8,509 nucleotides of DNA from IMG/VR virus record IMGVR_UViG_2648501784_000014; one strand, written 5' to 3'. Positions within the stretch are counted from its first letter, which is position 1, and each line of letters starts with the position of its first letter. The notes under the pieces were generated by a model, which saw only the letters and a list, made by a program, of their open reading frames with translations, searched no databases and was not told the origin of the DNA. Positions 7,077-7,187 of the stretch are shown one piece after another. Source of the DNA: a virus. Lineage: Monodnaviria > Loebvirae > Hofneiviricota > Faserviricetes > Tubulavirales. Made by a program: the position numbers and the translations under genes.

Positions 7077-7085
7077 GACAGAGGA

Positions 7086-7150
7086 CACTCCGCTCGCCGC
7101 AGACCCAGCGACCGAACGTAGTGAGCGAGTGGTCGAGGAAGCGGAATATC
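7086..7150. other. GC-rich intergenic element resembling the ColE1/pMB1 region downstream of ori; candidate primosome-assembly / single-strand initiation site
   Basis: CCGCTCGCCGCAG (7090-7102), GACCGAACG, AGTGAGCGAG and GAGGAAGCGGAA closely match the pBR322/pUC sequence CCGCTCGCCGCAGCCGAACGACCGAGCGCAGCGAGTCAGTGAGCGAGGAAGCGGAAGAG recalled from memory. Imperfect inverted repeats (ACTCCGCTC / GAGCGAGT; TCCGC / GCGGA). Sits in a 111-bp spacer between gene I and gene IV. Confidence 0.4.
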
Positions 7151-7187
7151 TTCATGACTGAAAAACAGCACTTACGCACGGTATAAC

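Follow-up and report, generated by a model that had tools for sequence, protein, structure and literature searches.

The spacer between gene I and gene IV of a filamentous phage is probably a PriA-dependent primosome assembly site of the phiX174 type, which belongs to the ColE1 ssiA family and acts as the complementary-strand (minus) origin. The spacer comprises 111 bp (7077..7187, plus strand, of the window, as we call the whole 8,509-nt stretch of DNA that was analysed), and nearly all of it resembles a primosome assembly site (pas). Three features of the ssiA family were found together: homology to a defined pas, the active orientation on the exposed strand, and a conserved single-strand secondary structure. 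We infer PriA binding, primosome assembly and the role as main minus origin from the phiX174 and ColE1 paradigms. Most likely, the copying of the ssDNA genome would be started by the host PriA restart machinery and not by RNA polymerase as in M13.

The phage and its relatives

All long ORFs of the window are encoded on the plus strand. Pfam searches identified a replication initiator of the P2 gpA type, a rolling-circle endonuclease (903..3002, plus strand; Phage_GPA, E = 6.5e-49), a gene III-like coat protein (4076-5503, plus strand), gene I, encoding the Zot-family assembly ATPase (5865..7076, plus strand; Zot, E = 3.2e-09), and gene IV, encoding the secretin (7188..8396, plus strand; Secretin, E = 2.6e-24). 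The strand of the gpA-type Rep fixes the sense of the displaced, packaged strand. The initiator has 699 aa and is, as we assume, neither of the Ff gene II type nor of the CTX RstA type. It shares 27-30% identity with gpA of P2-like prophages, and these prophages have their own subtype of the same primosome-site element.

A megablast search of the deposited phages with the whole window gave no match. E. coli chromosomes hold prophages that are 96-98% identical to the window, and judged by these sequences the phage is therefore a temperate E. coli inovirus. The E. coli lysogens of this prophage family that were found here are mostly human isolates. Related copies were found in IMG/VR contigs and on one Citrobacter plasmid. 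An identity with YpfPhi or CUS-1 was rejected, as both are CTX-like and a review on them does not mention a secretin. UPPhi was rejected as well, being IKe/I2-2-like.

Retention of the spacer at the gene I-gene IV junction

Both genes that flank the spacer are intact (5865-7076 and 7188-8396), and the match crosses the gene I-gene IV junction in 18 complete E. coli chromosomes (some match was present in 22 genomes). Spacers of 111 bp were counted 16 times in these chromosomes, one spacer has 110 bp and two have about 760-790 bp. No junction without a spacer was found among the 18 chromosomes. The preliminary description had held the spacer to be a real insertion between intact genes and not vector contamination. 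With 18/18 E. coli chromosomes holding a spacer at this very place, both statements hold, and contamination and chance are excluded as the source of the spacer match.

The element was kept in every relative with a recovered junction, namely the 18 E. coli chromosomes, the IMG/VR loci and a Citrobacter prophage. One to three copies are present at the junction, in plus orientation without exception. These data bear on the idea that the spacer is a passive recombination scar, or a hitch-hiker from a co-resident ColE1-like or other small plasmid, which has no role for the phage. Such an origin would fit the 96-98% identity over 57 nt to small E. coli plasmids, and also the behaviour of the junction as a variable cargo site that holds 1-3 copies or 2.2 kb of extra DNA in relatives. 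However, a scar is not expected to be retained in all recovered junctions, even where the gI and gIV proteins share only 50-58% identity (L038, L039), or to point in the plus direction in every case. We therefore regard a passive scar as unlikely.

Several junctions are longer. At 8310-9060 of L001, and also in L006/L007 and L038-L041, the element is present two or three times in the gI-gIV spacer, each copy in plus orientation. The tandem copies are separated by a unit of ~282 bp, which is itself tandemly duplicated and has two GGGCACTTA(C/T)GCTCT repeats inside. A plasmid origin of this inter-copy DNA was rejected, since only two large plasmids match (in 4 and 3 places); one of them, from Citrobacter, is a confirmed carrier of the prophage. 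In L038 and L039, the distance from gI to gIV is 2.2 kb, with two element copies in between. The gI-gIV junction seems prone to duplication and to the acquisition of cargo.

Homology to plasmid primosome assembly sites

Over the core of the element (7090-7146), 47 of 57 positions are identical to pUC/pBR322-type sequence (82%; E = 2e-11 against a single subject). The preliminary description had put this similarity at about 80 percent and had pointed to shared exact blocks. These blocks were recovered, with 13 nt at 7090-7102, 13 nt at 7134-7146 and a 10-nt block that is out of register. The pUC ori sequence used here was checked against a vector-contaminated contig (L077), to which it is 99.6% identical over 740 nt. 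The pUC/pBR322 homologue sits ~110-175 nt downstream of the pMB1 RNA/DNA switch.

With 7060-7200 as blastn query, the plasmid records that matched numbered at least 5000 (E-values as low as 5e-38 among the matches listed), and the ColE1-type plasmid homologues anticipated in the preliminary description were found. The nearest relatives of the element are the small E. coli plasmids mentioned above, which are 1.4-4.7 kb in size (E ~1e-16 to 1e-18). Natural ColE1-like plasmids (L140, L137, L115, L019) carry the element collinear with RNA II, on the RNA II-sense strand, which bears out the proposed homology to the ColE1/pMB1 region downstream of the origin. In four small plasmids, no RNA I was detected by Rfam at its gathering threshold; therefore, the ColE1 origin was oriented by the verified pUC sequence.

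In pUC, the pMB1-derived part presumably stops 8 nt past the 3' box of the element. The RNA II-sense strand of ColE1 is the strand that is displaced by Pol I extension. This extension exposes the n'-pas (ssiA) on the displaced strand, and PriA builds a primosome there (PMC3167613). Constructs of the pUC type that have only 419 nt in common downstream of the switch still contain ssiA (PMC3167613). The shared part and the pMB1 boundary together therefore place ssiA within the ~180 nt that hold this element. Identification of the element as a homologue of ssiA/pas-BH is supported by these alignments and by PMC3167613.

A distant search of the deposited phages with the core gave mainly short and unusual 'phage' records that contain pBR322-type sequence; these were set aside as artefacts of cloning or assembly. 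Conjugative plasmids of 28-165 kb have 2-6 matching places per record (e.g. NZ_CP025752.1, NZ_MW655528.1 and OV141394.1). Exact pBR322/pUC-type copies were also seen on tiny contigs of unrelated taxa such as Paracoccus, Cutibacterium, Streptococcus, Pseudovibrio and a Caldipriscus MAG (L068, L073, L077, L081, L090, L096, L100 and others). These copies look like cloning-vector or small-plasmid contamination of public assemblies.

Anatomy of the element

Family members were collected by a pattern scan with the two invariant ends, which yielded 54 viral loci and dozens of genomic or plasmid loci once GC-rich chance matches had been removed. The scan of bacterial genome contigs was swamped by GC-rich chance matches and vector contamination and was useful only for extra enterobacterial variants.

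All parts of the element are given on the plus strand. It begins with a weakly conserved upstream motif, AGAGG (7080..7084), which is aligned in two plasmids (L002 and L003). AGAG is located 5-16 nt 5' of the 5' box in 30% of the family members, compared with 0% of the chance pattern matches. The 5' box CCGCTCGCCGCA (7090..7101) consists of two CCGC units with TCG between them and is invariant in all family members; the stop codon of gene I lies 13 nt 5' of it. A variable stem follows. Its 5' arm GACC[C]A[G]C (7102..7109) contains two single-base bulges and pairs with 7129-7134, while its 3' arm GTGGTC (7129..7134) shows covariation with the 5' arm. Between the arms lies the apical loop GACCGAACGTAGTGAGCGA (7110..7128), in which the blocks GACCGA and G(T/C)GAGCGA are conserved within the subtype of the window. 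The 3' box GAGGAAGCGGAA (7135..7146) is again invariant in all family members and includes AAGCGG, which we take to be the motif common to factor Y / n' sites. Only one other site in the window comes within two mismatches of the 3' box, and it shows no pairing with any 5' box.

Further downstream, the box GCACTTACGCAC (7168..7179) is common to the plasmids L002, L004, L096 and L116 and to natural pBR322-type plasmids. The start codon of gene IV is found 8 nt 3' of this box. The motif [T/G]ACGC occurs 27-30 nt past GCGG in 60% of the family members and in 0% of the chance matches, with a sharp peak at +28. Because this downstream motif belongs to the family, the unit extends over ~7080-7179, that is, nearly the whole spacer. 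The GC-rich core that had been delimited at 7086-7150 was thus correctly recognised as a core, but the conserved unit is wider than these limits.

Family members have 21 to 50 nt of hairpin between their boxes. The element itself has length variants of 42-71 nt that are not multiples of three, so that it is not coding. A minimal version of 42 nt was seen in Rosenbergiella gaditana (L074/L075), where the boxes enclose a short GCAAAC..GTTTGC hairpin. Judged by this version, the window's subtype may not need its long apical loop.

Folding and covariation of the stem

In the predicted hairpin, a CCGC/GCGG base is followed by an asymmetric internal loop, GAGGAA, and by a 6-bp stem that is closed by a loop of 19 nt. 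At the base, GCGG (7141-7144) is a possible partner of the second CCGC unit in the 5' box (7097-7100). This outer helix of four pairs never varies in sequence and so gives no covariation signal. The stem above it shows compensatory changes from A-T to C-G, from C-G to T-A and from A-T to G-C. The arms remain complementary even though relatives have entirely different stem sequences, with GACC/GGTC in the window, GCCC/GGGC in small plasmids, GATC/GATC in L006 and GTTTAT/ATAAAC in two phages of the window's family (L009 and L011). Other elements have GTCGAT/ATCGAC and GTCTGT/ACAGAC arms, and in a 64-nt subtype GCCCTGA/TCAGGGC is found versus GCCCGGA/TCCGGGC. Compensatory changes inside the phage lineage (GACC/GGTC, GATC/GATC, GTTTAT/ATAAAC) also argue against a passive scar.

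Pairing of each element's own arms had a mean of -7.4 kcal/mol, compared with -2.9 +/- 0.4 when arms were swapped between elements; the value for own arms was reached by 0/2000 permutations. Covariation scores of three subtype alignments were above 500 column shuffles (at most 1/500 reached them) and above all slid controls. A hand tally of wobble pairs, made from pair tables and alignment rows, gave 7 G-T versus 2 A-C. As G-T outnumbers A-C, the GAAGCGG-sense strand is favoured as the folding strand. Judged by these alignments, the stem is real, with its pairing conserved though its sequence is free.

In contrast to the covariation, the folding energy of the spacer as ssDNA was no better than that of shuffled sequences (z = -0.3), and neither strand was significant. 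The structural case thus rests on covariation and not on stability. Folding of the packaged strand had been put forward as a check in the preliminary description; an unusual stability was not borne out, whereas a conserved structure was. The MFE helix CGACCG/TGGTCG was rejected in favour of the covarying register, as it is not conserved in relatives. Alternatively, GTGAGCG (7121-7127) can pair with CGCTCGC (7091-7097), and RNAalifold chose this helix on an alignment of 19 sequences. As the main fold, this pairing of the 5' box with G(T/C)GAGCG was rejected, since it has one-sided G-T/G-C variation and no compensatory change; it is a possible alternative conformer. A pseudoknot of both helices is impossible, because the connecting loop would be 1 nt. 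The pBR322-type reference element does not have the covarying stem (-0.8 kcal/mol).

Distribution and orientation

The sense of the element equals the sense of the genes in four inovirus lineages. In the family of the window, including L038 and L039, the element is located between gI and gIV. A second lineage (L043/L045) has it 8 nt past the stop codon of gene IV. The third and fourth lineages are Vibrio phages with Rep_trans (RstA-like) initiators; subtype C lies directly after zot in the third, which includes the deposited phages V5 and vB_VpI_FR1, and the fourth carries subtype D. Analogous positions have thus been taken by independent subtypes in Vibrio inoviruses, a further point against a passive scar.

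In CTX-like inoviruses of Vibrio parahaemolyticus, sites of subtypes C and D were located after zot at 5872-5925 (L015), 6220-6268 (L050) and ~5424-5477 (L187, V5). The V5 site shares part of its length with a hypothetical ORF of the annotation, probably a spurious one.

Outside the inoviruses, the 64-nt subtype lies just past the gpA operon and is co-oriented with gpA in 16/16 P2-like contigs that have gpA in view. On these contigs of ~36 kb (L017-L066), it is placed between the gpA operon and the portal/terminase genes (e.g. L049 3869-3932). The subtype has a covarying 7-bp stem and an inner 5-bp hairpin. It was absent from the deposited P2-like phages, among which only weak matches to Sodalis phiSG1 and to a Klebsiella phage were obtained. 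In small plasmids with RepL or an HTH protein, the element and the replication gene point in the same direction.

ColE1 plasmids replicate without a Rep and are not packaged. Since two unrelated Reps (Phage_GPA and Rep_trans), RepL plasmids and the Rep-less ColE1 all go with the element, it must be read by a host factor. This argues against a role as plus-strand origin, i.e. as nick site of a gpA-type Rep, or as packaging signal. Such a role would be in line with the presence of Phage_GPA initiators alongside the element, both in P2-like phages and in the family of the window, and with a hairpin that adjoins morphogenesis genes. Nevertheless, the element is also found with Rep_trans (RstA-like) initiators, on RepL plasmids and on ColE1 plasmids. 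Furthermore, P2-type origins lie inside gene A, which we count against a plus origin at this position. Taken together, we consider the probability of a plus-origin or packaging role to be close to negligible.

The preliminary description had proposed that the element could serve as the complementary-strand origin on the packaged ssDNA. Inovirus genomes are positive-sense (PMC8491893). As the element is on the coding strand, it is on the packaged strand and in the same sense as the active ColE1 strand, in agreement with this proposal.

The same orientation would also suit a function at the RNA level in the gI-gIV transcript, either as a processing or stability site or as a regulator of gene IV translation. 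The sense of the element is that of transcription in the phages examined and that of RNA II in ColE1, and the element ends 8 nt before the start codon of gene IV, where no strong Shine-Dalgarno sequence is evident. Since transcription runs in the direction of the element in the contexts that were examined, orientation alone is no argument against an RNA role. However, the element has no Rfam family match and no terminator-like T-run. It also stands after the last gene of an operon (zot, gIV or the gpA operon), where there is no downstream cistron to regulate. In addition, what is documented for the ColE1 homologue is a signal in single-stranded DNA (PMC3167613). A function of the element as RNA is therefore very unlikely.

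The proposed minus origin

With the spacer read as a PriA-type minus origin, incoming circular ssDNA would be coated by SSB, and the segment from ~7080 to 7179 would fold as a hairpin on the coated plus strand. PriA would recognise the folded site, followed by PriB and DnaT, by DnaB delivered from the DnaB-DnaC complex and by DnaG. Primers made by DnaG would be extended by Pol III to yield the double-stranded replicative form. The same site would prime the conversion of plus strands that are later displaced by the gpA-type Rep.

No promoter-like sites were detected on either strand of 6800-7400, the spacer contains no plus-strand terminator-like site, and Rfam, run over the window, reported nothing at the spacer. 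In a non-exhaustive search of the genome, no obvious candidate for another minus origin came up; a very stable hairpin was found elsewhere only at 319-414, and it resembles an attP. A second minus origin may lie elsewhere, in the 1-kb regulatory region. Origins of the G4 type (ssi) consist of three adjacent stem-loops that are recognised directly by DnaG on SSB-coated DNA. The homology of the element points to the PriA type and not to such a primase-only ssi.

Comparison with known systems

The ssiA of ColE1/pMB1 (n'-pas, the factor Y effector site; pas-BH in pBR322) has the same 5' and 3' boxes and the same GACCGA..GCGAG core, and it too is placed on the strand that becomes single-stranded. 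Natural pBR322-type plasmids additionally share a TTACGC-type downstream motif. In contrast, ColE1 is a theta plasmid with the site downstream of the RNA II origin, whereas the phage of the window is filamentous and has its site in the gI-gIV spacer. The pBR322 subtype lacks the covarying 6-bp stem of the window's subtype. Moreover, ColE1 ssiA starts from a D-loop, whereas the phage site would start on a free ssDNA circle.

The n' (PriA) site in the F-G intergenic region of phiX174 has the job that is proposed here, that of a complementary-strand origin of an ssDNA phage that works through PriA, PriB, DnaT, DnaB/C and DnaG. We assume that this site holds AAGCGG and CCGCT as well. Unlike the window, phiX174 is a microvirus, and no alignable homology was found between the two sites. 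A match to a 'phiX174' record was discounted: with 3164 bp, the record is shorter than the phiX174 genome, its match is of the pBR322 type, and it was taken as a cloning chimera.

The Ff phages (M13/f1/fd) belong to the same virus family as the window, and their minus origin serves the same conversion of ssDNA to RF. It is a double hairpin that presents -35/-10-like elements to sigma-70 RNA polymerase; it is sensitive to rifampicin and is found downstream of gene IV, within the large intergenic region. In contrast, the spacer of the window has no promoter-like site and resembles a plasmid pas.

Plasmid ssi signals were reportedly cloned in M13/f1 vectors with a deleted minus origin by Nomura, Low and Ray in 1982 and in later ssi screens. 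A ColE1-type pas on the viral strand of such vectors is said to support SS-to-RF conversion by a phiX174-type mechanism. These vectors are laboratory constructs, whereas the window represents a natural phage family that has the site as a fixed feature. Nomura et al. are said to have described phiX174-type ssi signals of F, R100, R6K and ColE2 in 1991. These signals probably belong to the same widespread family, in a plasmid context.

Implications for minus origins of inoviruses

We found no paper that links primosome or PriA sites with natural filamentous phages in the full-text literature, which covers little of the older subscription work. The element family is thus a known one, in a setting that we could not find reported; an earlier description is possible. 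While the Ff model is a start by RNA polymerase, a plasmid-type PriA site is present on the packaged strand in the family of the window and in no fewer than three further inovirus lineages. We tentatively propose that PriA-type sites form a portable, host-dependent lagging-strand/minus-origin cassette, with fixed boxes and a free hairpin. Such a cassette would pass between Escherichia, Citrobacter and Vibrio inoviruses, small plasmids and P2-like phages, and several inovirus lineages would depend on the host restart primosome to establish infection.

If this is true, the choice of minus origin in inoviruses is modular and horizontally exchanged, and host range and sensitivity to host defences are tied to PriA, PriB and DnaT. 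A dependence on priA, priB and dnaT, together with rifampicin-resistant establishment, would be predicted for these XerCD-integrating prophages. The element could also provide a compact natural unit of ~100 nt for phagemid or ssDNA-production vectors. To our knowledge, PriA recognition of a pas has never been resolved structurally. The family alignment, with CCGCTCGCCGCA and GAGGAAGCGGAA invariant and the stem free in sequence but paired, would amount to a natural mutational map of how PriA reads a pas. The mechanism itself is classical; of use are its natural occurrence in inoviruses, a modular exchange that links phages with plasmids, and a comparative map that tells invariant from free positions.

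Other features of the phage genome

The segment 319-414 forms a very stable imperfect hairpin (ssDNA MFE -39.7 kcal/mol, z = -10, matched by 0/200 shuffles). Each of its arms resembles an E. coli dif-like XerC/XerD site (AGTGCGCATAA..TTATGTTGAAAA), and a central bulge is unpaired. It looks like a folded ssDNA attP of the XerCD type as in CTXphi, and this explains weak palindromic Rfam 'MIR6140' matches at 323-410. A P2 origin nick motif was searched for in the window and was not found. At 897-975, overlapping TGCACAATTGCA-type palindromes cluster across the start of the replication gene; they are probably repressor operators.
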